A stretch of DNA of 32,000 nt, from positions 37,004-69,003 of the forward strand of contig NZ_JAVRBS010000017.1 of the NCBI RefSeq assembly GCF_034531155.1. Reading direction: 5' to 3'. This stretch comes from Nostoc sp. ChiVER01 (lineage in GTDB: Bacteria > Cyanobacteriota > Cyanobacteriia > Cyanobacteriales > Nostocaceae). A program made the position numbers and the translations under genes. Shown one piece after another: positions 15,846-26,530 of the stretch (its first letter is position 1; each line of letters starts with the position of its first letter). The notes beneath the pieces were generated by a model that was not told where the DNA came from, made no database searches, and was given only the letters and a program-made list of their open reading frames with translations.

Positions 15846-17516
15846 TTAGGCTCCGGGTTTGAAATAATCGAAGAGGCGATCGCCTGAATCTGCGCGAATT
15901 AATGCTACAACTACATCTGGTAAGGCAGTTAAACTGGGGTAAACCAAATAACGTGGTTCCCAACGGGGGCGGAATTTCTCTCTGTAGGCGTGCAGTCCCT
16001 TAAAATTGTAGAAGCGATTCAAATGCCCGTATAGATAGTGCAATACTTTCTCCAAGCGGCGTGATTCTGGGTTGTCTCCAACTCCCGCAAGGGCAGAAAG
16101 GCCAAAATTAAAGCTGTCGTAGCCACCCTCTTTAAAATGTTGAAGCAGGGAAATAAATAGAAAGTCCATTGTGCCATTTTCGAGGGACGCGCGATGTCGC
16201 ATCATGTCAATAGTGGCTTCGTTAAGTTGGTACTCCCGGAGAATGTTGGCAAAGGCGCTGATGTTACCTTCAGAATTATGCACTACAGCAATCTCACACT
16301 CTCGCAAGTAAGCTTCGTCAAACCAACCCAAAGAAAAATGTTTTTCCGAACCCTGTACCATCTTCAACCATTCATCACTTACAGATTTGAGTTGGTGCAA
16401 TAAATCATTGGCAATGGGTGGTTGGTAAAACTCGATTTGGTATCCTAGTTTAGTTAAACGACTGATTGATGGTCTAAAGTTCTTACCAGCTTTACCTTGT
16501 AACGTAAAACTTTTCAGGTCAACGATCGCTTCTTCTCCAATCTTAAGTACCTTAAACCCCAATGACTTGTAAAGCTCAACATCATCGGGCAAAGTTTGAT
16601 AAAAACCGGGATACCAGTCATTACGTTGGCAAAACTGTTGGAAAGCAACAATTGTCTCTTTGCGGTCTTCAATGGGGCCGATGGGATCTCCTAATGCGAT
16701 CGCACCCCTTCCCTTGGGAACATAAGCAATTAAACTATTACCGGAAGGACTAAAATAATAACTTTTATCATTTAAGAGTGTGAATGCTGCTAAAGAAGAA
16801 CATCCATATTGCTCGACAATTTCTTTAGCTCTTTTTCGCTCATTTGGCGTTGCTAGATTCCGCCAAAATACAGGTTGCAAGAGCATTACCATTGCATAGG
16901 TAATAGTAACTGCGGCTATAATATATATCGAATTAGCAAAAAATTCTCCAAATTTGCTTTTTGGTTGCAGTCCCCAATTATCCTCAGTGAAGAACATCGC
17001 CAAAGTCTGAACTATGGCTTCACGCCAGTTAAAATTCTCTGAGAACTTGCCGTCTAATAAGTAAAATCCAATAGTTCCGTATGCCAGGGTAAATAATAAA
17101 GCGCCTATCAGCGCTCGAACTCCCCGTGCGATCGAAGGACGGTCTGATTGCGCCGTAAAATAATGGCGCATCAAGATTAATTGCACCAGCAAAACTCCAG
17201 AGAGTAGACTTTCTTCATAGTCCAGTCCCTTCAGCAAGTGGCTGAAAATGGAAATCACTAGTAAACCAATGGTAAGTAACCAGGCTATTCTTTTGCGACG
17301 TAATAAATTAGTCGCAAGTGCTAGTAAAACAAACCCAGTCAGGGCTGCAAAGATATGACCACTGGCTCGGATTTCAAATGGTAAAAATTCTTTCAACCAG
17401 TGATTTCGCCCATATAAGTTAGGTGTCACTGCTGATAACAAATTTACTACTCCGACTAAACCTGTAAGCAAAGCTGCACTCCAAAGTCCAATCTGAGTTT
17501 TTAAATTATTGGTCAT
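15846..17516 (-). CDS. Aminoacyl-phosphatidylglycerol synthase (MprF synthase half: about 6 TM plus DUF2156/LPG_synthase_C domain)
   Basis: 556 aa. The N-terminal ~210 aa are hydrophobic. The C-terminal soluble domain looks MprF-like (ALGDPIGP..., FSLGWFDE..., YNFKGLHAYREKFRPRWEPRYLVY). Confidence 0.8.
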   Translation of the reverse strand: MTNNLKTQIGLWSAALLTGLVGVVNLLSAVTPNLYGRNHWLKEFLPFEIRASGHIFAALTGFVLLALATNLLRRKRIAWLLTIGLLVISIFSHLLKGLDYEESLLSGVLLVQLILMRHYFTAQSDRPSIARGVRALIGALLFTLAYGTIGFYLLDGKFSENFNWREAIVQTLAMFFTEDNWGLQPKSKFGEFFANSIYIIAAVTITYAMVMLLQPVFWRNLATPNERKRAKEIVEQYGCSSLAAFTLLNDKSYYFSPSGNSLIAYVPKGRGAIALGDPIGPIEDRKETIVAFQQFCQRNDWYPGFYQTLPDDVELYKSLGFKVLKIGEEAIVDLKSFTLQGKAGKNFRPSISRLTKLGYQIEFYQPPIANDLLHQLKSVSDEWLKMVQGSEKHFSLGWFDEAYLRECEIAVVHNSEGNISAFANILREYQLNEATIDMMRHRASLENGTMDFLFISLLQHFKEGGYDSFNFGLSALAGVGDNPESRRLEKVLHYLYGHLNRFYNFKGLHAYREKFRPRWEPRYLVYPSLTALPDVVVALIRADSGDRLFDYFKPGA

Positions 17517-17711
17517 AACTTTAAAAATATTAATTAGGAGTTAGGAGTTTTGGCTCTACGACTCTCTTTAGGGGCTAAAATAATAAACAGACAAGTTTTA
17601 TCGGCTGTGTTAATTATACAGATTAAGTTTTAATTTTTTTAATTTTCTCCATAACACCTTAATTTTAAGGCCATAGCACAGTTAGAGCAATAGAACCTGA
17701 GTTTTCAAATT

Positions 17712-18620
17712 TTAACTCTTAACTCCGAATTTTTTAAACTGTTCCCCTACATAAGAGAGGGAATCTTTAAGATGCTTGTGGAAGTAGTTCCAGCCTATAT
17801 CAGCACCAGACAAACCATGACCTCCTGGAAAGGCATAAAATACGTGAGCAATACCTAATTTGTTTAAGGTATCGTTGAAATCTTTGGTAGAAGCCAGCAA
17901 ATTAGTATCATTCAAACCCGCATCTAAGTAAACACGCAATCGCTTCCTATCTTCAATTGGTAGCTGTTGCACGATTTGTTGGGGGCTATTTTGCGAACCG
18001 CTATTATCGGTAAAATAACCGCTATGACTAAACAGAATGTGGAAGTTGTTGAGATGGCGTAACCCGATATTAAAAGCCCCCCATCCTCCAGAAGAAAGAC
18101 CTCCCAACGCCCAAAACTGGGGTTCTTCTAAAGTGCGGTAGCGTGACTTGACAACTTGCACTAGTTCTGAACCAATTAAAGTCCCAACTTTACCATTCGG
18201 CCCATCAAAATAATCGGGGTCGTATAAAGGACTAGAACCCCGATTATCATTACCATCAGGTGTAATTACAATCGATGGCGGTAATTTTCCACTTTTATAA
18301 AGTTCATGCAATACATCTAAGATGGCATATTTATCAGCGTAAGCACGGGCATCATCATGACCACCGTGTAGTAATAATATCACAGGATACCGCTTTTGTT
18401 GATTTTTATTATAACCAGGCGGCAAAATCACGCCATAGTTGCGGACTGCACCCATCGCTTGGGAGTTAAAGCTTGCTAATTGAAACTTTAGCCCAGTATT
18501 TGCCTCTTCTTGAGGTGGGTCTAATTGTGGCGCACCTAAGATGAATACATAATAATAACCAGCAGTAGTAAGGAGTGCGATCGCTCCTACTAAACTAATT
18601 AAAAATTTAGAAATCTTCAT
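17712..18620 (-). CDS. Membrane-anchored alpha/beta hydrolase (putative esterase family)
   Basis: 302 aa with an N-terminal TM anchor. Motifs are YPVILLLHGG and the nucleophile elbow GGLSSGGWGA (GxSxG). By eye it is a roughly 60 percent identical paralog of the next gene. Confidence 0.8.
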   Translation of the reverse strand: MKISKFLISLVGAIALLTTAGYYYVFILGAPQLDPPQEEANTGLKFQLASFNSQAMGAVRNYGVILPPGYNKNQQKRYPVILLLHGGHDDARAYADKYAILDVLHELYKSGKLPPSIVITPDGNDNRGSSPLYDPDYFDGPNGKVGTLIGSELVQVVKSRYRTLEEPQFWALGGLSSGGWGAFNIGLRHLNNFHILFSHSGYFTDNSGSQNSPQQIVQQLPIEDRKRLRVYLDAGLNDTNLLASTKDFNDTLNKLGIAHVFYAFPGGHGLSGADIGWNYFHKHLKDSLSYVGEQFKKFGVKS

Positions 18621-18770
18621 ATTAATTTAACGTTTAAAAAATCACCCCCACTAGAACTTACTATAGTTAATTTGCTGAAAAATTGCAGCTGAGTTTTCCA
18701 CATTGATGTTTAAATATCAAAGGATTTATAAAATCTATGCTACATACAATATGATTTTTACTGCGAATTG

Positions 18771-19733
18771 CTAATGATTTTGACTTTTGACTTTCTCAAA
18801 GGCCGTTCTATGCGCTATTTCAGAAACTCGAAATTGTTCTCCCACAAATGTCAACGAATCGGATAAATGTTCTCGCCAGTATTTCCAAGTGTGGCTACCA
18901 GGAAACTGACGAAACAAATTATAAACTTTTAGCTTATCTAGTACTTGGCTAAACTTTTGAGCTTCGTCGATTTCTTCAATATCTGATGTACCAGAATCTA
19001 GATAAATTCGCAATTTTTTTTGAGTTTGTAAAGGAATAGTTTTGATATAACTTATTGGGCTATTCATTGGGCCACTTTTATCATGAAAATAACCGCTATG
19101 ACTAAATAAAATCGAGAAATGATCTAGGTTATGTAATCCCACATTCATTGCTCCCCAACCACCAGAAGATAAACCACCTATAGCCCAAAAATCTGGATTG
19201 TTTATTGTACGATAACGGCTTTGCACAACTTTTACCAATTCATCCCCTACGGCTGTAGAGACTTTACCATTAGGGCCATCAATATATTCGGGATCTCGGT
19301 AAGGGCTAGAGCCACGTTTGTCGTTACCATCTGGTGTGATAATAATGCTGGGTGGCAACTTACCTTTAGTATAAAGTTGTTCTACAGTTTTAAGAGCTTG
19401 TCCTTTACTCTGAATAAACCAATCACTGGGATTACCATGTCCACCGTGGAGGAGAAATATTACAGGATAGCTTTGTTTTAGGTTTTTTTCATAACCAGGG
19501 GGTAAAGAAACGCCATAGGTGCGACTTGCGCCCATTACCTGACTATCGTAGGTTTCAATTTTGTAGGTTAGGGGAGTAGTTGAGTCGCTAGTATTGGAAT
19601 GAGTTGGAAGAACGGAAGGCTTTGTTTGTAAATCCTGTTGTGGTGGTTTTGCTACGGTACTTTGGGAGAAATTACAGCCAACAAGAGTTAATACTAAAAC
19701 TAGTAAGAGAATTTTAGATTGTTTGTAGTTCAT
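18771..19733 (-). CDS. Lipoprotein alpha/beta hydrolase (putative esterase family), paralog of 17712-18620
   Basis: 320 aa. The signal peptide has the lipobox LTLVGC. Motifs are YPVIFLLHGG and GGLSSGGWGA. It is collinear with the neighbouring esterase. Confidence 0.8.
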   Translation of the reverse strand: MNYKQSKILLLVLVLTLVGCNFSQSTVAKPPQQDLQTKPSVLPTHSNTSDSTTPLTYKIETYDSQVMGASRTYGVSLPPGYEKNLKQSYPVIFLLHGGHGNPSDWFIQSKGQALKTVEQLYTKGKLPPSIIITPDGNDKRGSSPYRDPEYIDGPNGKVSTAVGDELVKVVQSRYRTINNPDFWAIGGLSSGGWGAMNVGLHNLDHFSILFSHSGYFHDKSGPMNSPISYIKTIPLQTQKKLRIYLDSGTSDIEEIDEAQKFSQVLDKLKVYNLFRQFPGSHTWKYWREHLSDSLTFVGEQFRVSEIAHRTAFEKVKSQNH

Positions 19734-19858
19734 TTATTGGGTAGCCGATATTTGCTTTACAAAAGCTTATGCAAATGATATGTCAATGCTGTGTCAACAG
19801 GATGGAAAATTTACGACTGGTTGTAAATTAAAAGTCAAGAGTTAGGATAAGTTTCTTC

Positions 19859-20812
19859 ATGATGCTTAAAAAGCTGCGACTCAATTTCAGTTCTTTGTTT
19901 GGCTTGTTGTTGCTGGTGCTTTGCGTGTGGGCGATCGCTAACGAATTGCATGAGTATAATTATCGTGATATCCTCAACTCCCTTGCAACAATTCCCAAAA
20001 GTCGCTTAAGCTGGGCAATTTGGCTGACAGCGTTGGGTTATCTTGTGATGATTGGCTACGATATCTTAGGTTTTAGCTACATTAATCGCTCCTTAAGTTG
20101 GAACAAGATTGCTCTAACCAGCTTTATTAGCTCTGCATTTAGTAATACCATCGGTTTTGCCTTGCTAACTGGCAGTGCTATCCGTTATCGATTTTATGCT
20201 AGTTGGGGAGTTTCAGCAGTTGCGATCGCTCAAGTAATTGCTTTTGCTAATTTTACTTTTTGGTTGGGGATGTTTGCCGTTGCAGGTTTCTTGTTTCTCA
20301 TCAACCCACTCAAAATTCCCACTCAAATACATTTGCCTTTTACTACTGTGCGTCCCATCGGCGTGATTTTTTTGCTATTAGTCGCTATTTATTTAATTGG
20401 AAGTCTTTTTATTAAACAACCGTTAATAATTCGTGGGCAAGAATTTCGATTTCCTTCTTTTAAAATATCCCTGGCTCAAATAGCAATTTCTAGTTTTGAC
20501 TGGATTTTGGCAGCAGCAGTTCTTTATGCTGTGCTTCCTAGCAATATATCTTTGTCTTATCTAGACTTCTTGGGAATTTATTTACTAGCGATGTTTGCAG
20601 GTGTGGTTAGTAATGTCCCTGGTGGTTTGGGAGTATTTGAAACTATAATTTTGCTGATTCTTTCTTCTAAAGTTTCGGCTGCGGCAATTTTGGGATCAAT
20701 GTTAGCTTATCGCGGAGTCTACTATTTCTTACCTTTGCTAGTAGCAGCAGGTTTGCTAGGAATTTATGAAATTAGATTTAGAGTTGGTAATTTAAAAAAT
20801 ATTGATAAATAG
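19859..20812 (+). CDS. UPF0104 / LPG_synthase_TM family membrane protein (MprF flippase-type domain)
   Basis: 317 aa with about 8 TM helices. The pattern is typical of stand-alone lysyl-PG synthase transmembrane (flippase) domain proteins. It is divergent from the esterase-synthase gene string. Confidence 0.75.
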   Translation: MMLKKLRLNFSSLFGLLLLVLCVWAIANELHEYNYRDILNSLATIPKSRLSWAIWLTALGYLVMIGYDILGFSYINRSLSWNKIALTSFISSAFSNTIGFALLTGSAIRYRFYASWGVSAVAIAQVIAFANFTFWLGMFAVAGFLFLINPLKIPTQIHLPFTTVRPIGVIFLLLVAIYLIGSLFIKQPLIIRGQEFRFPSFKISLAQIAISSFDWILAAAVLYAVLPSNISLSYLDFLGIYLLAMFAGVVSNVPGGLGVFETIILLILSSKVSAAAILGSMLAYRGVYYFLPLLVAAGLLGIYEIRFRVGNLKNIDK

Positions 20813-20845
20813 TAAATTTCAGTTTCAGTATGAGTACGAACAATA

Positions 20846-20878
20846 AGATCCCCGACTTCTTCGATAAGTCGGGGATCT
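20846..20878 (+). terminator. Strong 13-bp hairpin downstream of the flippase-like gene
   Basis: AGATCCCCGACTT (20846-20858), a 7-nt loop, then AAGTCGGGGATCT (20866-20878). The trailing T-tract is weak (GAGCCTTTTGAT). Confidence 0.5.
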
Positions 20879-21041
20879 GAGCCTTTTGATATCTTCACAA
20901 AGAATAGCGATAAATCATAATTTTTGCTGAGGCGATCGCTAATTTAATCCCATAACAATAGTAACAGTTAGGGAAAATTTTTCAACTAGATTTCCATAAA
21001 TCATCAAAATCCCGTTTTATTGTTTGAGGATAGAAAGAATC

Positions 21042-21431
21042 ATGAAAAATAAAGTATTGTTTGGTGCTATTTTCATGGCAACTTGGGTAGGAACATTGAT
21101 TCCAAGTGCTTTTGCTGCTTCACCCTGTTCTGTAGGACAAAAGGCTGAGGTTCTTTGGAAGGAAAAATGGTATCCGGCAACGGTACTTAAGGTTAATAAT
21201 GAGAAATGCTATATTACCTACGATGGTTATGATAGTTCCTGGAATGAATGGGTTGGCACTACACGCTTTCGGGCATCATTTCAAGTTGGCGATGCAGTGA
21301 GAATTTTGTGGAAAGGAAAATGGTATCCAGGGCAGGTTTTAGAAGTTAGTAACGATCTTTATAAAATTACTTATGATGGCTACGATAGCTCTTGGGATGA
21401 GTGGGTTGAACCTGCAAGGGTAAGTAGATAG
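21042..21431 (+). CDS. Secreted protein with two tandem Tudor-like (SH3-fold barrel) domains
   Basis: The ATG at 21042 (MKNKVLFGAIFMATWVGTLIPSAFA) gives a signal peptide. Two repeats follow, of the form G-x-x-V-x-(I/V)-L-W-K-x-K-W-Y-P-x-x-V-L-x-V-x-x-x-x-Y-x-I-T-Y-D-G-Y-D-S-S-W-(N/D)-E-W-V. The ORF track starts at TTG 21024. Confidence 0.7.
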   Translation: MKNKVLFGAIFMATWVGTLIPSAFAASPCSVGQKAEVLWKEKWYPATVLKVNNEKCYITYDGYDSSWNEWVGTTRFRASFQVGDAVRILWKGKWYPGQVLEVSNDLYKITYDGYDSSWDEWVEPARVSR

Positions 21432-21456
21432 GGAATATTTCACTTTTATAAGTTTA

Positions 21457-21500
21457 AAGGGACGATTTCACTTGTTGGAGTCGTCCCTTAAATTGTTTTA
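21457..21500 (+). terminator. Rho-independent terminator of the Tudor-like gene
   Basis: AAGGGACGA (21457-21465) / TCGTCCCTT (21481-21489), followed by AAATTGTTTTAT. Confidence 0.6.
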
Positions 21501-21506
21501 TCAAAA

Positions 21507-21534
21507 CAGAATTCAGGAGTCAGGAGTCAGAATT
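21507..21534. repeat. STRR-type heptamer tandem repeat (CAGAATT/CAGGAGT x4)
   Basis: cagaatt caggagt caggagt cagaatt read directly. The same family occurs in inverse orientation at 30518-30552. Confidence 0.8.
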
Positions 21535-21613
21535 AAGAATGAATTTTGTACAACTGGTAAGAGGCTGCTAAACTGAGAGCCATAAGTAAAATCTCGTATA
21601 CTTTGGCAAACTT

Positions 21614-22066
21614 ATGGAGCCAGTATCGCTGACAGCAGGTGCGATCGCAACCTTGGTAATCGTCAAAGCCTTTGAAAAAACTGGGGAAATCATCGGTGAA
21701 AAGGCTTGGAATGAAGGCGAAAAGTTGTTAGTTCTGCTGAAGCGCAAGGAACCTAGCACGGCGAAGGTTATCGAACAGGCTAAAACACAACCTTTAGATT
21801 ATGGTCAAGCTTATCTCATTGGGCAGCAGGTAGAGGAAGCGGCAAAGAAAGATCCTGAAATTGCCCAAGCTGTGGAAGCTGTAGCTAATGAGGCACAAAC
21901 GCAGATTAATCAAATAGTTATAAAAGGAATTCTGGTAAAAGGTAAGGCTAAAGTCGGCAATATAAATTTGTCAGCCACAAGAGACGGTTCAGTGAATCAA
22001 GAAGCGGTGGTTGATTCTCAATTTGGCGGCGATCTTGACCTTGGTAATGTGGACATGAAAGCCTAA
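21614..22066 (+). CDS. Bell-like helical effector with a C-terminal double 21-aa amyloid-type motif
   Basis: 150 aa. The N-terminal helix MEPVSLTAGAIATLVIVKAFEKTGEIIGEKAW is hydrophobic/amphipathic and the middle is helical. The tail is NQIVIKGILVKGKAKVGNINL, an 8-aa linker, then NQEAVVDSQFGGDLDLGNVDM. Its stop is 4 nt before the NLR start. Confidence 0.7.
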   Translation: MEPVSLTAGAIATLVIVKAFEKTGEIIGEKAWNEGEKLLVLLKRKEPSTAKVIEQAKTQPLDYGQAYLIGQQVEEAAKKDPEIAQAVEAVANEAQTQINQIVIKGILVKGKAKVGNINLSATRDGSVNQEAVVDSQFGGDLDLGNVDMKA

Positions 22067-22070
22067 AATT

Positions 22071-25000
22071 ATGAGCAAAAATCACAGCCCAGAAGAAATT
22101 TTACAGAGCATTCTCCGAAATGTTCAAGTAGGCGGCAATCTGACTACAGGCGATATTACCCAAATCCTGAATTTACTGGTTATTATTCAACAGCCAGACG
22201 TTTTCAAACCAAAGGAAATTCCTCAAAATATTCCTCGTGGTAGCGTAGTCAAGTTTGTCGGACGTGCTGAGACTTTAGTGAATCTGCACGAAAGGCTACA
22301 ACACAGTTCTCAGGTGGTGATTGCTGCAATTGAGGGTATGGGAGGAGTCGGAAAAACAGAGTTAGCAACTCAGTATGCACTGATTCACCTACTACTCAAC
22401 ACTTACCCCGGTGGTATCTGTTGGTTACGCGCTAGAGATGAAGATATTGGGCTTCAGATATTGCAGTTTGCTATAGCTAAGTTAGGATTAAAACCACCAG
22501 AAGATTGGGATTTACCACAGCAAGTTGATTTCTGTTGGTCACGCTGGCACGATGGGAATGTGTTGGTAGTACTGGATGATGTCAACGATTACCCCAAAGT
22601 AGAACAATATTTACCACCACAATCACCCCGGTTTAAGCTGCTAATTACCAGCAGGTTACAGTTAGATTTTCCCCAGTCATTTACTCTAGATGTTTTAAGT
22701 GAGTCCGCAGCACTAGAACTTTTACAAGAGTGGGTGGGAACAGAAAAAGTTGCACAGGAATTAGAAGATGCGAAAGAAATCTGTCAGCGTTTAGGTTATT
22801 TGCCTTTGGCGCTGAATTTGGTGGGGAGGTATGTGAAAAAGCGGAGACTCTCTTTAGCAGAAATGTTGCGGCGGTTAGAAGAAAAAAAGTTAACTCATGA
22901 ATCTTTAGCACGGGATGAAAAAGACCGCGCTTGGACGCTGAATGTTAAACGAGGTGTTGCTGCTGCTTTTGAGTTAAGTTGGGAAGAATTAAATGATTAT
23001 GCCAAGGAGTTAGGTGTTTTACTGAGTTTATTTGCTTTAGCTCCTATTCCCTGGAGACTGGTAGAAAGTGTAGAAACTGGGAAAAATACTACACAGTTGG
23101 AAAAAAGTAGAGTTGATTTAGAAGATTTGCATCTGCTTCAAGGTGAGGATAGCTACCAACTACATCAACTCATTCGGGAATTTTTTCAACTCAAGCAAGC
23201 TGAGTTCAATCAAGTGGAGGAATTAAAGCGATCGCTTTGTGGAGTAATAATAGTAGATGCCAAGAAGATTTCTGACTCGCCCACTCTTGAGCAAATCACT
23301 GCTGTTTCCCCCACCATACCTCATATAGCTGAAGTAGCGAATCATCTCATTCAATACCTCAGCAATGATGATTTAATTTGGCCTTTCCTCGGCAACGTTT
23401 GGTTTTACAAGGGTCAAGGTTTATATAACCAAGCTTTATTCTGGTGTAAACAATGTCTAGAAGTCACTAAAAAGTGCTTAGGAGAAGAACATCCAGATGT
23501 CGCCCAAAGCTTCAACAACCTAGCGTTACTCTACCGTAACCAAGGCAGATACAGTGAAGCCGAACCCCTTTACATCCAAGCTTTGGCACTTAGGCGTCAG
23601 CTGCTGGGAGAACTACATCCAGATGTCGCACAAAGCCTCAACAACTTAGCGGAACTCTACCGTTACCAAGGCAGATATAGTGAAGCCGAATCCCTTCACA
23701 GCCAAGCTTTGGTACTCAAGGTGCTGTTGCTGGAAGAAGAACATCCAGAGGTCGCACTTAGCCTCAGCAACCTTGCGGGACTCTACTATTACCAAGGCAG
23801 ATACAGCGAAGCTGAACCCCTTCTTATCCAAGCTTTGGCACTCAGGCGTAAGTTGCTCGGAGATGAACATCCAGATGTCGGTGTTACCCTCAACAACTTA
23901 GCGGAACTCTACCGTTCCCAAGGTAGATACAGCGAAGCCGAACCCCTTTACATCCAAGCTTTGGCACTTATGCGCCAGCTACTGGGAGATGCACATCCAG
24001 ATGTCGCCACTAGCCTCAACAACCTAGCGGAACTCTACAACTCCCAAGGCAGATACAACGAAGCCGAACCCCTTCTTATCCAAGCTTTGGCACTCAGGCG
24101 CAAGCTGCTCGGAGATGAACATCCAGATGTTGCCACTAGCCTCAACAACCTAGCGGGACTCTACTATCACCAAGGCAGATACAGCGAAGCCGAACCCCTT
24201 TTTATCCAAGCTTTGGCACTCATGCGCCAGGTGCTGGGAGATGAACATCCAAATGTTGCACTTAGCCTCAACAACCTGGGGGAACTCTACCGTTATCAAG
24301 GCAGATACAGCGAAGCCGAACCCCTTTACATCCAAGCTTTGGCACTTATGCGCCAGGTGCTGGGAGAGGAACATCCATCTGTCGCACAAGGCCTCAACAA
24401 CCTTGCAGAACTCTACAACTCCCAAGGCAGATACAGCGAAGCTGAACCCCTTTACATCCAAGGTTTGGTACTTATGCGTAAGTTGCTCCGAGAGGAACAT
24501 CCAGATGTCGCTACTAGCCTCAATAAACTAGCGGGATTCTACGAATTTCAAGGCAGATGCAGCGAAGCCGAACCCCTTTTTATCCAAGCTTTGACACTCA
24601 CGCGTAAGTTGTTCGGAGATGAACATCTATCTGTCGCTAATAGCCTCGATAAACTAGCGGGACTCTACCGTTCCCAAGGCAGATATAGCGAAGCCGAACC
24701 CCTTTTTATCCAAGCTTTGGCACTCACGCGCCAGGTGCTGGGAGAGGAACATCTATCTGTCGCTGCTAGCCTCAACAACCTCGCGTTACTCTACCGTTCC
24801 CAAGGCAGATATAGCGAAGCCGAACCCCTTTTTATCCAAGCTTTGGCACTCATGCGCCATCTGCTGCCAGAAGAAAATCCATCTGTCGCCCGATGCCTCA
24901 ACAACCTCGCAGAACTTTACCATTTCCAAGGTAGATACAGTGAAGCCGAACCCCTTTTTATCCAAGCTTTGGCACTCATGCGCCAGCTACTGCCAGAAGA

Positions 25001-26081
25001 ACATCCAGATGTCGCACTTAGCCTCAACAACCTCGCAGAACTCTACCATTCCCAAGGTAGATACAGCGAAGCTGAACCCCTTTTTATCCAAGCTTTGGTA
25101 CTCAGACGCAACCTGCTTGGAGATGAACATCCATCTGTCGCTGCTAGCCTCAACGGTCTAGCAGAACTCTACAACTCCCAAGGTAGATACAGCGAAGCCG
25201 AACCCCTTTTTATCCAAGCTTTAGCACTCAGACGCCAGCTGCTTGGAGATGAACATCCTTATGTCGTCCAAAGCCTCAATAACCTAGCGTTACTCTACAC
25301 TTGCCAAGACAGATACAGCGAAGCCGAACCCCTTTACATCCAAGCTTTGGCACTCAGACGCAAGCTGCTTGGAGATGAACATCCAGATGTCGCCACTAGC
25401 CTTTACAATTTAGCGGGACTCTACACCTGCCAAGGCAGATACGACGAAGCCGAACCCCTTTACATCAAAGATTTGGCACTTACGCGCCAGCTGCTAGGAG
25501 AAGAACATCCTTATGTCGCCCAAAGCCTCAACAACCTTGCGGGAATCTACTGTTCCCAAGGCAGATACCGCGAAGCCGAACCCCTTTTTATCCAAGCTTT
25601 GGCACTCAGACGCAACCTGCTGCCAGAAGAACATCCAGATGTCGCCCAAAGTCTCAACAACCTCGCAGAACTCTACACCTGCCAAGGCAGATACAGCGAA
25701 GTCGAATCCCTTTTTATCCAAGCTTTGGCACTTATGCGCCAGATGCTGCCAGAAGAACATCCTTATGTCGCCCAAAGCCTCAACAACCTAGCGGGACTCT
25801 ACCGTTCTCACGGCAAATACAGCGAAGCCGAAACCCTTTACATTCAAGCTTTGGCACTCTACCGCAAGCTGTTAGGAGAAGAACATCCTTATGTCGCTAC
25901 TAGCCTCCACAACCTAGCGGGACTCTATAACTGCCAAGGCAAATATAGCGAAGCTGAACCCCTTTTCATCCAAGCTTTGGAAATTGCTGAACTTAGTTTA
26001 GGGGTAAATCATCCCAATACAATTACTTTCCGTGAAAATCTGAAATATTTGCGCGATCGCCTCCCCCCAAATCCAGAATAA
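22071..26081 (+). CDS. NB-ARC (STAND) ATPase with an N-terminal amyloid-type motif and a 21-unit TPR sensor (NLR-like)
   Basis: 1336 aa. The N-terminus carries LQSILRNVQVGGNLTTGDITQ. NB-ARC motifs follow: FVGRAETLVNLHERL lead-in, P-loop GMGGVGKT (22335-22358), Walker B VLVVLDDV (22560-22583), LITSR and GYLPLAL (GLPL-type). These are followed by about 21 x 42-aa TPR units of the kinesin-light-chain (TPR_10/12) type. Confidence 0.9.
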   Translation: MSKNHSPEEILQSILRNVQVGGNLTTGDITQILNLLVIIQQPDVFKPKEIPQNIPRGSVVKFVGRAETLVNLHERLQHSSQVVIAAIEGMGGVGKTELATQYALIHLLLNTYPGGICWLRARDEDIGLQILQFAIAKLGLKPPEDWDLPQQVDFCWSRWHDGNVLVVLDDVNDYPKVEQYLPPQSPRFKLLITSRLQLDFPQSFTLDVLSESAALELLQEWVGTEKVAQELEDAKEICQRLGYLPLALNLVGRYVKKRRLSLAEMLRRLEEKKLTHESLARDEKDRAWTLNVKRGVAAAFELSWEELNDYAKELGVLLSLFALAPIPWRLVESVETGKNTTQLEKSRVDLEDLHLLQGEDSYQLHQLIREFFQLKQAEFNQVEELKRSLCGVIIVDAKKISDSPTLEQITAVSPTIPHIAEVANHLIQYLSNDDLIWPFLGNVWFYKGQGLYNQALFWCKQCLEVTKKCLGEEHPDVAQSFNNLALLYRNQGRYSEAEPLYIQALALRRQLLGELHPDVAQSLNNLAELYRYQGRYSEAESLHSQALVLKVLLLEEEHPEVALSLSNLAGLYYYQGRYSEAEPLLIQALALRRKLLGDEHPDVGVTLNNLAELYRSQGRYSEAEPLYIQALALMRQLLGDAHPDVATSLNNLAELYNSQGRYNEAEPLLIQALALRRKLLGDEHPDVATSLNNLAGLYYHQGRYSEAEPLFIQALALMRQVLGDEHPNVALSLNNLGELYRYQGRYSEAEPLYIQALALMRQVLGEEHPSVAQGLNNLAELYNSQGRYSEAEPLYIQGLVLMRKLLREEHPDVATSLNKLAGFYEFQGRCSEAEPLFIQALTLTRKLFGDEHLSVANSLDKLAGLYRSQGRYSEAEPLFIQALALTRQVLGEEHLSVAASLNNLALLYRSQGRYSEAEPLFIQALALMRHLLPEENPSVARCLNNLAELYHFQGRYSEAEPLFIQALALMRQLLPEEHPDVALSLNNLAELYHSQGRYSEAEPLFIQALVLRRNLLGDEHPSVAASLNGLAELYNSQGRYSEAEPLFIQALALRRQLLGDEHPYVVQSLNNLALLYTCQDRYSEAEPLYIQALALRRKLLGDEHPDVATSLYNLAGLYTCQGRYDEAEPLYIKDLALTRQLLGEEHPYVAQSLNNLAGIYCSQGRYREAEPLFIQALALRRNLLPEEHPDVAQSLNNLAELYTCQGRYSEVESLFIQALALMRQMLPEEHPYVAQSLNNLAGLYRSHGKYSEAETLYIQALALYRKLLGEEHPYVATSLHNLAGLYNCQGKYSEAEPLFIQALEIAELSLGVNHPNTITFRENLKYLRDRLPPNPE
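23418..26063 (+). repeat. Tandem array of 126-bp coding repeats (21 TPR units)
   Basis: GGCAGATA(C/T)AG(C/T)GAAGCCGAACCCCTT recurs with an exact 126-nt period (e.g. 23544, 23670 ... 25938). Many stretches over 50 nt are identical between units. The antisense and out-of-frame ORFs called here are repeat artefacts. Confidence 0.9.
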
Positions 26082-26184: not shown

Positions 26185-26228
26185 TCATATTCAATAAGTA
26201 AAAATGCCTGATTACTTATTCAATATGA
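26185..26228 (+). terminator. AT-rich 16-bp-arm hairpin about 100 nt downstream of the NLR stop
   Basis: TCATATTCAATAAGTA (26185-26200), a 12-nt loop, then TACTTATTCAATATGA (26213-26228), with one mismatch. It is followed by GCTTTTACTTCTTC. Confidence 0.35.
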
Positions 26229-26530
26229 GCTTTTACTTCTTCAAAAGCAGCTTTTAATGTCGCATTTGAGTGTTTTCCACAAACAAAAGCAGCTTTTACT
26301 TCTTCAAAAGCAGCTTTTAATGTTGCATTTGAGTGTTTTCCACAAACAAAAGAAGCTTTTGGTTTTTCATTTTAGTGTTTTACGCAAGCAAAAGCAGCTT
26401 TTACTTTCTCAAACCCCAGTTTGCTTTCTTATTTTAATGTTTTCCGCAAACAAAAGCAGCTTTTACTTTCTCAAAAGGTGCTTTTAGTTACTCAAACCCC
26501 AGTTTGCTTTCTCATTTGAGTAATTCACGC
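26229..26530. repeat. Degenerate tandem repeat, five units of about 63 bp
   Basis: Unit starts (GCTTTT...) are at 26229, 26292, 26355, 26397 and 26459. Units 1 and 2 are nearly identical (gcttttacttcttcaaaagcagcttttaatgt(c/t)gcatttgagtgttttccacaaacaaaag). Unit 3 is shortened to 42 bp. Units 4 and 5 diverge by sharing aaaccccagtttgctttct. Confidence 0.8.

Follow-up and report, generated by a model that had tools for sequence, protein, structure and literature searches.

A putative Bell/BASS4 amyloid-signalling gene pair in Nostoc sp. ChiVER01 and the polymorphism of its locus

Introduction

What does a large receptor-like protein share with the small helical protein encoded immediately upstream of it, and what might the two do together? 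The question is raised by two adjacent genes of the cyanobacterium Nostoc sp. ChiVER01, which lie in a 32,000-nucleotide (nt) stretch of contig NZ_JAVRBS010000017.1 (positions 37,004 to 69,003 of the forward strand; this whole stretch is called the window, and coordinates are those of the window unless a locus name precedes them). The first gene (21614..22066, plus strand) starts with ATG, ends with TAA and encodes an effector of 150 amino acids (aa). The second (22071..26081, plus strand, ATG start) encodes a nucleotide-binding oligomerization domain-like receptor (NLR) of 1336 aa with an N-terminal BASS4 motif, an NB-ARC domain and a TPR array. The original prediction, made from the letters alone, had given the first stop at 22066 and the next ATG at 22071, which is exact, and had seen in the two genes a Bell/BASS-type pair analogous to fungal HET-S/NWD2.

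Dyrka and coworkers (2020, bioRxiv 10.1101/2020.01.06.895854; J Mol Biol 432:6005) described ten families of BASS motif, each found both at the C-terminus of Bell proteins and at the N-terminus of the NLRs encoded next to them. In their Table S2, the bass_04 entries include the pair OYD94771.1/OYD94772.1, from a Nostoc cyanobiont of a lichen, with the motifs KSNETINQIVLKGVEVKGKAKVGDINL and ILQSILQNVQVGGNLTTGNITQ and genes 6 base pairs (bp) apart. Both motifs are near-identical to those of the window, so that, together with a profile match across the two partners, the predicted class was borne out and the family could be named as BASS4. Judged by the sequence features that define the class, the window pair is a Bell/BASS4 effector-NLR pair, and it adds an individual not described before to a class published in 2020. 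The two genes probably form one operon-like unit encoding a Bell/BASS4 amyloid-signalling cell-death module.

Organization of the gene pair

The effector stop codon and the NLR start codon are separated by the 4-nt spacer AATT (22067..22070, plus strand), which implies translational coupling. For comparison, 80 genomic loci encoding relatives were fetched and the effector and downstream gene were extracted from each (fetched loci, including the metagenome loci discussed below, are designated by L numbers). The 4-nt gap recurs in the other BASS4 pairs examined, with the exception of L085, where the genes overlap by 4 nt, and tight coupling of effector and NLR is kept in 14/14 BASS4 pairs. In the published BASS set, 57% of collinear pairs are <=10 bp apart (Dyrka et al. 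2020); the window pair, on the same strand and 4 nt apart, agrees with this pattern. Upstream, the Agenet/Tudor-like gene ends in an intrinsic terminator (21457..21489, plus strand; 14-bp stem, 5-nt loop and T-run). This strong terminator suggests that the Bell-NLR pair is a unit of its own, whose 5' boundary it marks. A weak sigma-70-like promoter candidate, CTGAGA-18-TATACT, lies at 21573..21602 (plus strand; 9/12 consensus match). Such sites are no more numerous in the region than in shuffled sequence, and assigning this one to the pair is speculative.

The shared motif

The effector ends in two 21-residue pseudo-repeats. The first, R1 (NQIVIKGILVKGKAKVGNINL; residues 99-119, 21908..21970), is followed by an eight-residue linker, SATRDGSV (21971..21994), and by the second, R2 (NQEAVVDSQFGGDLDLGNVDM; residues 128-148, 21995..22057). 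The NLR carries one copy, LQSILRNVQVGGNLTTGDITQ (residues 11-31, 22101..22163). All three copies lie on the plus strand, precisely where the original prediction had placed them. The signature that it considered common to the three is clear in R2, a canonical Asp-rich copy (32.5 bits with a Bell-side BASS4 profile, over residues 123-148), and in the NLR motif, which scores 39.9 bits with an NLR-side profile (residues 9-31), and is weak in R1 (3.4 bits with the Bell-side profile). On sequence grounds, R2 and the NLR motif are canonical BASS4 motifs and R1 is a degenerate Lys-rich copy. R1 is nevertheless conserved across both BASS4 lineages, and Table S2 aligns the R1 position of OYD94771.1 to the NLR partner.

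Taken alone, the window pair shows only moderate motif similarity. The three copies share 5-6/21 residues in register, with ungapped BLOSUM62 scores of 23, 23 and 26; Smith-Waterman alignment of the effector tail with NLR residues 1-60 gives p=0.05 against shuffles, and alignment of the R1 and R2 regions gives p=0.005. The copies do, however, find one another in the complete proteins. When the NLR 21-mer is slid along the whole effector, the best offsets are R2 (score 26) and R1 (23) and the next is 13, and when R1 and R2 are slid along the 1336-aa NLR, the best offset of each is residue 11 (23 and 26, respectively; next 12-13). At the level of the family, the similarity is significant and the case is clear. 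Profiles were built from the BASS4 motifs of Table S2 with the close homolog pair OYD94771.1/OYD94772.1 left out, and the Bell-side profile matches NLR residues 12-31 with 18.7 bits (p<=5e-4 against shuffles), which is its sole match in the full NLR. The similarity above shuffled expectation that had been predicted is therefore found by this profile and is borderline in the single pair (p=0.05).

The BASS4 motifs have the composition and periodicity of beta-arch motifs (G, N, Q, V and I, in a tail without Pro). At register positions 13 and 15, R1 carries K and R2 carries D, a difference kept across the family. In the structure of HET-s(218-289), two repeats are arranged with charge pairing between layers. 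A two-rung solenoid held by salt bridges between its layers would require such a pairing of Lys in R1 with Asp in R2, and this charge complementarity could explain the departure of R1 from the canonical profile.

The effector and its Bell domain

The effector is identical to WP_322649487.1, annotated as 'hypothetical protein [Nostoc sp. ChiVER01]', and belongs to no family in Pfam, NCBIfam or PADLOC scans; its membership was established via homologs and published tables for this reason. A homology search found 214 relatives, nearly all from Nostocales, which have the N-terminal domain (MEPVSLTAAAIATLVITKAFEKTGE...) in common and carry several C-terminal tails that are swapped among them. The effector matches the cluster containing the Bell-side entry OYD94771.1 with E=2.4e-25 (44% identity, 100% coverage) and falls into the same 90% cluster as RCJ41357.1 of N. 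punctiforme NIES-2108, the strain on which Dyrka et al. based their Bell alignment.

The Bell domain was described as helical and ~100 aa long, with a hydrophobic helix at the N-terminus, an acidic second or third residue and five helices predicted to form a bundle (Dyrka et al. 2020, bioRxiv 10.1101/2020.01.06.895854). In the effector, it spans residues 1 to ~97 (21614..21904, plus strand), with five predicted helices and 153 bits to a Bell-family hidden Markov model. It begins with a 'MEPIS-type' motif and hydrophobic helix 1 (MEPVSLTAGAIATLVIVKAFE; 21614..21676, plus strand), presumed to be the membrane-inserting helix. Within the N-terminus MEPVSLTAGAIATLVIV, M1, E2, P3, L6, T7, I11, A12, T13 and L14 are nearly invariant among relatives, and the Kyte-Doolittle maximum of the protein, 2.03, lies at residues 3-17, every other segment reaching <=1.0. 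Ibarlosa and coworkers reported that a MEPIS region is common to Bell, Hell, Bab and Avast2 and is needed for activity (bioRxiv 10.1101/2024.11.07.622273). The start of the effector, MEPVS, matches this region, with the hydrophobic helix and the acidic residue of Bell domains in place.

An AlphaFold2 model from a 47-sequence alignment places helices at residues 8-21, 29-45, 47-58, 63-79 and 81-109, with a predicted local distance difference test score (pLDDT) of ~58-80, and leaves the tail disordered from residue 99 (pLDDT <40). The effector accordingly has the ~100-aa, all-helical, five-helix layout of Bell proteins, which are 120-140 aa long; it reaches 150 aa because its tail is doubled. 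Disorder of the tail in a monomeric model speaks neither for nor against amyloid formation.

The NLR

The NLR motif is followed by an NB-ARC NTPase domain (residues 69-274; 22275..22892, plus strand; Pfam PF00931, E=1.3e-16) whose motifs are intact: a P-loop (GMGGVGKT, residue 89), Walker B (LVVLDD, residue 165), GYLPLA (residue 242) and an MHD-like LHQL (residue 364). After it come ~20 TPR_10/TPR_12 units (TPR_12 E=8.8e-299). They are encoded by a sensor array (23481..25980, plus strand) in which Tandem Repeats Finder found a 126-nt unit repeated 19.8 times, 83% identical and without indels. The protein thus combines the P-loop, Walker B, GxP and MHD-like motifs with the C-terminal repeat sensor of an NB-ARC-TPR STAND NTPase. 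Per-position entropy across the 42-aa TPR units shows that variation is concentrated at positions 5, 12, 14, 22, 25, 35 and 36, a pattern expected for a diversifying ligand-binding surface. Minus-strand and alternative-frame open reading frames (ORFs) of 60-116 aa on both strands of 23646-25791 are by-products of the 126-nt repeat and not genes.

Co-variation of the partners

If the shared motif joins the two proteins, partners should carry matching motifs, as the original prediction held. Between motif classes they do. Across 12 two-gene pairs of three classes (BASS4, BASS5 and BASS7), true partners outscore permuted ones (p=1e-4), and permutation of seven non-redundant representatives gives an exact p=0.006. 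A comparison within BASS4 covered 14 pairs of two lineages. Between the two lineages, the BASS4 tail is 75-85% identical and the Bell domain only 24-27%, and the conservation of the tail on such diverged domains indicates a strong constraint on the motif.

Relation to known systems

Among known systems, the bass_04 pairs of Dyrka et al. are closest: they share the motif family, near-same motifs and the order of a Bell protein of ~150 aa followed by an NB-ARC/TPR NLR. The pair OYD94771.1/OYD94772.1 comes from the same genus, and in it and the window alike the genes are collinear, at a distance of 4-6 bp. Unlike proteins of the OYD94771 type, the window effector has a Bell domain of another subfamily (24-27% identical in global alignment of the domain alone; 42-46% in local alignment of the whole protein), and the chromosomal locus is different.

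The layout resembles that of HET-S/NWD2 of Podospora anserina, where HET-S joins a pore-forming HeLo domain to two 21-aa HRAM repeats and the NLR NWD2 (NACHT-WD40) bears a single R0 repeat. In both systems, the genes are adjacent, the effector has an N-terminal membrane-targeting helix and a helical bundle, and two 21-residue pseudo-repeats at the C-terminus of the effector face one at the N-terminus of the NLR; the charge complementarity between the two effector repeats is likewise shared with HET-S. The prediction of a HET-s-like arrangement of two repeats against one was correct, though the double repeat on the Bell side of BASS4 and its HET-s-like layout were already noted in PMC8086366. 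HET-s is also the closest grammar match of BASS4. The differences are nonetheless considerable. The effector has no HeLo, Helo_like_N, SesA or RHIM match at E<=1 in Pfam, the window NLR is of the NB-ARC/TPR type whereas the partner of HET-S is NACHT/WD40, the linker between the repeats has 8 residues and not ~15, and a bacterial operon stands against divergent fungal genes. The relation to HET-S/NWD2 is, on this comparison, one of analogy and not of family membership.

Two further bacterial systems bear on function. Bab/Agp of E. coli ECOR25 has been demonstrated to be an amyloid-controlled abortive infection system, and its Bell-like domain moves to the periphery of the cell (Ibarlosa et al. 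2024, bioRxiv 10.1101/2024.11.07.622273). Unlike the window pair, it uses a single BASS11 motif and a shorter effector ('Babybell', ~80 aa), and its host is unicellular and carries it in a prophage defence island; the window NLR has NB-ARC and TPR only, with no GreA/B or PIN domain, and lies outside Bab/Agp and its TGP sensor. The second system is the BASS3 (RHIM-like) pair of Nostoc punctiforme, whose NLR motif turns the Bell motif into a prion in Podospora and whose motifs form fibrils in vitro (Dyrka et al. 2020). The BASS1 NLR-side motif likewise converts its Bell-side partner to the prion state in Podospora, with fibrils in vitro. The N. punctiforme pair is a cyanobacterial Bell/NLR pair like that of the window, with another motif family and with tests that were heterologous or in vitro. 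These prions, cross-seeding and fibrils partly contradict the earlier statement that no characterised cyanobacterial pair was known, which holds for BASS4 itself.

Bell/BASS-NLR pairs are a bacterial counterpart of fungal HET-S/NWD2 and animal RHIM signalling and bear on how ancient NLR-controlled, amyloid-switched cell death is. The window pair, from a Nostoc associated with lichens, adds a further well-formed example of BASS4, and finding it leaves current knowledge unchanged. Its intact NTPase and its repetitive, variable sensor make it a reasonable candidate for a first test in the native host.

Polymorphism of the locus

The flank that precedes the Bell gene (esterase, transmembrane part of MprF, Agenet) is found in the same position in ~30 other Nostocales genomes, mostly Nostoc. 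When window positions 18771-26081 were compared with L003-L029, L038-L048, L055 and L085, the same locus was found to carry a BASS4 pair (L003, L085), a BASS5 pair (L055), or one of two arrangements with an in-frame TGA, designated BASS7-TGA and NYGG-TGA by their tails. The Bell domain is 70-90% identical at this locus, and strains vary in their amyloid cassette and type of NLR. Differing arrangements behind a common flank indicate that the locus is polymorphic for amyloid cassette and NLR, and this swapping of cassettes is reminiscent of fungal het loci.

Relatives also occur elsewhere. Distant paralogs lie on Nostocales plasmids, and Bell/BASS4 homologs on Nostoc plasmids (H6, H7 and H9) are misannotated as 'Fis family transcriptional regulator'. 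BASS4 pairs of lineage B (L081, L083 and L086) adjoin XPB-helicase/DUF790, PIN toxin-antitoxin and PD-(D/E)XK genes, a defence-island-like setting. A phage origin was considered and rejected, as no homolog turned up in phage genomes.

Proposed mechanism and alternatives

A mechanism may be proposed by analogy with HET-S/NWD2, with the cross-seeding of BASS1 and BASS3 and with Bab/Agp, from which amyloid formation by BASS4, templating, membrane attack and the nature of the trigger are inferred. A ligand, most plausibly phage-derived but possibly another non-self or danger signal, would bind the TPR array, upon which the NB-ARC domains would oligomerise. Oligomerisation would gather the N-terminal BASS4 motifs (residues 11-31) into a cross-beta fold, and this nucleus would template the disordered C-terminal tail of the co-expressed effector, with the Lys-rich R1 and the Asp-rich R2 stacking as complementary rungs in the manner of HET-s. 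Folding of the tail would then destabilise the five-helix Bell bundle and release the MEPVS hydrophobic helix into the membrane. The cell would be killed or permeabilised, resulting in abortive infection or in the altruistic death of one cell of the filament. The proposal starts from what was observed here, namely the coupling of the genes, their domain architecture, the membership in Bell and BASS4, the concerted switching of motif class in both partners and a disordered tail on a helical domain.

Several points weigh against this cell-death module. The first group concerns the motifs. The NLR-side BASS4 profile has no significant match on the effector (p=0.11), R1 barely matches the Bell-side profile (3.4 bits), and the two sides of the window pair are 24-29% identical, less than in pairs for which cross-seeding has been demonstrated (43-56%). 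The partner motifs of L056 and L058 score at chance level, and the pair is intact. Fine-scale co-variation within the 14 BASS4 pairs was not found: the NLR motif does not follow the tail (r=0.05) and follows Bell-domain phylogeny (r=0.76), so that the predicted co-variation stands between motif classes and was not seen at this finer scale. Effector tails are almost invariant and NLR motifs drift with phylogeny, which leaves the fine-scale test with little power. The second group concerns structure. The AlphaFold2 model has low overall confidence (predicted template modelling score, pTM, 0.46) and its tertiary packing is not reliable. A Foldseek search of PDB with this model gave nothing significant (best E=0.63; an Rx-CC domain at E=1.9) and, at a pTM of 0.46, is uninformative, speaking neither for nor against a HeLo, MLKL or CC-like fold; a PDB sequence search with the effector returned designed coiled coils only (E>=0.05) and no solved pore-forming domain. 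The remaining points concern setting and function. The neighbours in the window are housekeeping genes (SMC, a split MprF, two esterases, Agenet/Tudor-like and CCA-adding enzyme), with no defence island. The field's own authors write that what Bell/NLR pairs do 'remains to be elucidated', and a 2026 review still words it with 'suggest'. Amyloid or prion formation or seeding has been shown for BASS1, BASS3 and BASS11, with no report for BASS4 found in the literature, and there is no published experiment on a Bell/NLR pair in its native host.

The alternative that survives best keeps the architecture and the templating but assigns them a role other than anti-phage abortive infection, in recognition of self and non-self between Nostoc strains, in the way fungal het loci act, or in developmental death within filaments. 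The strong polymorphism of the locus, with the Bell domain kept and the cassette (BASS4, BASS5, BASS7-TGA or NYGG-TGA) and NLR swapped, fits such a role, as do the confinement of Bell/BASS systems to multicellular prokaryotes, the housekeeping flank and the lack of homologs in phage genomes. Polymorphism and hypervariable sensor repeats are, however, equally expected of an anti-phage receptor; Bab/Agp, the sole functionally characterised bacterial Bell-like system, is anti-phage, and the BASS4 pairs of lineage B stand in a defence-island-like setting. Allorecognition or a developmental role is considered unlikely.

Less likely still, the motif could mediate an ordinary stoichiometric contact of the NLR N-terminus with the effector tail, for example by beta-strand augmentation, that recruits or sequesters the effector with no prion-like templating. 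The low identity of the two sides, the NLR-side profile result and the intact pairs of L056 and L058 would be accommodated by such a contact. Against this, all BASS families tested (1, 3 and 11) form amyloid and cross-seed, BASS4 has the composition and periodicity of beta-arch motifs, and a double repeat with K/D complementarity is hard to fit to 1:1 binding and natural in a two-rung solenoid. Finally, coincidental likeness between the NLR and an unrelated small helical protein encoded by the 150-aa ORF, which would suit the single-pair Smith-Waterman result and the lack of a curated family, is highly improbable and already effectively refuted by the family-level tests, given the reciprocal best offsets in both whole proteins, the profile match, the concerted class switching, the coupling conserved in 14 pairs and the independent earlier cataloguing of the same pair type.

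In-frame TGA codons in related loci

Some relatives of the window pair have a different arrangement. In 53 fetched loci, a Bell-BASS ORF and a downstream ORF lie in the same frame with a single stop codon between them, and this codon is always TGA. They include loci among L004-L080 (e.g., L004:6373-6375, L022:6379-6381, from N. punctiforme NIES-2108, and L044:6388-6390); metagenome examples are L099, L100, L102, L104, L119, L124, L129, L130, L132, L136, L137, L152, L158, L159, L161 and L165. In contrast, two-gene pairs with a motif-bearing NLR use TAA or TAG in 15/16 cases (Fisher p=3e-14 against the TGA loci, uncorrected for phylogeny). The window itself contains no second Bell gene and no TGA-context element.

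The context of the TGA is conserved. The next codon is CTA in 47/53 loci, and CTA makes up 7.9% of Leu codons in the same genes. The frame is open into NB-ARC in 47/47 loci analysed, and stops interrupt the two remaining frames in 47 and 42 of these loci. In 38/48 TGA loci there is no in-frame ATG before the P-loop. The NLR in such loci carries no BASS motif itself, and translation of the linker gives a peptide (..PERERVKLNPP..IPQNLPLSG) homologous to the one that joins motif and NB-ARC in genuine two-gene NLRs. Synonymous divergence (dS) is 0.38 in the linker and 0.66-0.70 in its flanks, and this depression indicates constraint at the nucleotide level. A 5-bp hairpin, GCCCG-8 nt-CGGGU, lies 8 nt past the TGA (alignment A3 columns 24-28/37-41; e.g., L004:6384-6401). 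All cells of the 30-sequence alignment pair (150/150), and two of the base pairs show compensatory change from C-G to U-A, in both the BASS7 and the NYGG tail class. The observed values are reached by 0/500 shuffles, and slid controls pair in <=39%. RNAalifold recovers the same hairpin independently; 11 loci with a shorter linker do not have it.

The element was also sought in the opposite direction. When metagenome contigs were scanned for the DNA element, 79 matches were returned. The conserved downstream linker is confined to the 17 in which the upstream ORF matches the Bell profile and to one truncated case. These metagenome loci carry >=8 tail types, one of them BASS7. The tail NYGGNVGN..QTFNF is not in the published pair table, which is expected if no separate NLR-side copy of it ever exists.

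Other explanations of the in-frame stop were tried. A separate start of the NLR is unlikely, as the first TTG or GTG lies at a non-conserved distance of 51-105 nt downstream, in some loci inside the conserved FVGRE region. Selenocysteine was rejected, since an Rfam scan of the TGA site found no SECIS and no other family and the position falls in a variable linker. A junction-spanning search of 5.8 billion proteins returned no natural sense-codon fusion among close relatives. One Trp-bearing Bell-NB-ARC fusion, P0187 (L091:169-765), is a gene-call artefact, for the DNA has TGA and genetic code 4 had been used.

The pattern suggests programmed UGA readthrough as the simplest reading, by which one gene would yield an abundant short effector and, rarely, an effector-NLR fusion with the same motif. 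The Bell/BASS papers make no mention of a stop codon, readthrough or an in-frame arrangement, and no report of it was found in the literature. On balance, there is a slight preference for regarding the window pair as one allelic form of a hypervariable locus whose sister alleles may yield both partners by UGA readthrough, the arrangements being interconvertible. If true, making the receptor by readthrough would give amyloid signalling a novel genetic design and add to the few examples of conserved programmed readthrough known from bacteria, and it would account for the many Bell-BASS proteins that seem to have no motif-bearing NLR partner in pair-based screens. This lead in related loci is more consequential than the window pair itself.

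Two observations were made at these loci in passing. In L075, L077, L078 and L080, the TGA-C context behind a Bell-BASS tail leads in frame not into an NLR but into the ORF of a Pro-rich membrane protein with a single pass, and this ORF has its own ATG. In L066 (a Potamolinea metagenome-assembled genome), three evenly spaced, sub-threshold CRISPR-DR28 matches (L066:11693-12044; 32.9 bits against a gathering threshold of 35) lie ~5 kb downstream of a TGA-type Bell/NLR locus.

Neighbouring features of the window

Directly upstream of the pair, 21024-21431 encodes a protein of 135 aa whose N-terminus is signal-peptide-like and which contains two Agenet/Tudor-knot-like repeats in tandem (WKxKWYPAxVL...YDGYDSSW[ND]EWV). 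Such a domain is unusual for a secreted bacterial protein, and the gene stands directly upstream of Bell in many Nostoc genomes. Further upstream, the MprF-like lysyl-phosphatidylglycerol synthase seems to be split into a C-terminal synthase part (15846-17516, minus strand) and a transmembrane, flippase-like part (19859-20812, plus strand), and the two esterase genes lie between the parts (15846-20812). Downstream of the NLR, the AT-rich intergenic stretch 26212-26496 contains tandem and interleaved repeats with periods of 21, 42 and 62/63 nt, whose core, CAAAAGCAGCTTTTA, is a near-palindrome.

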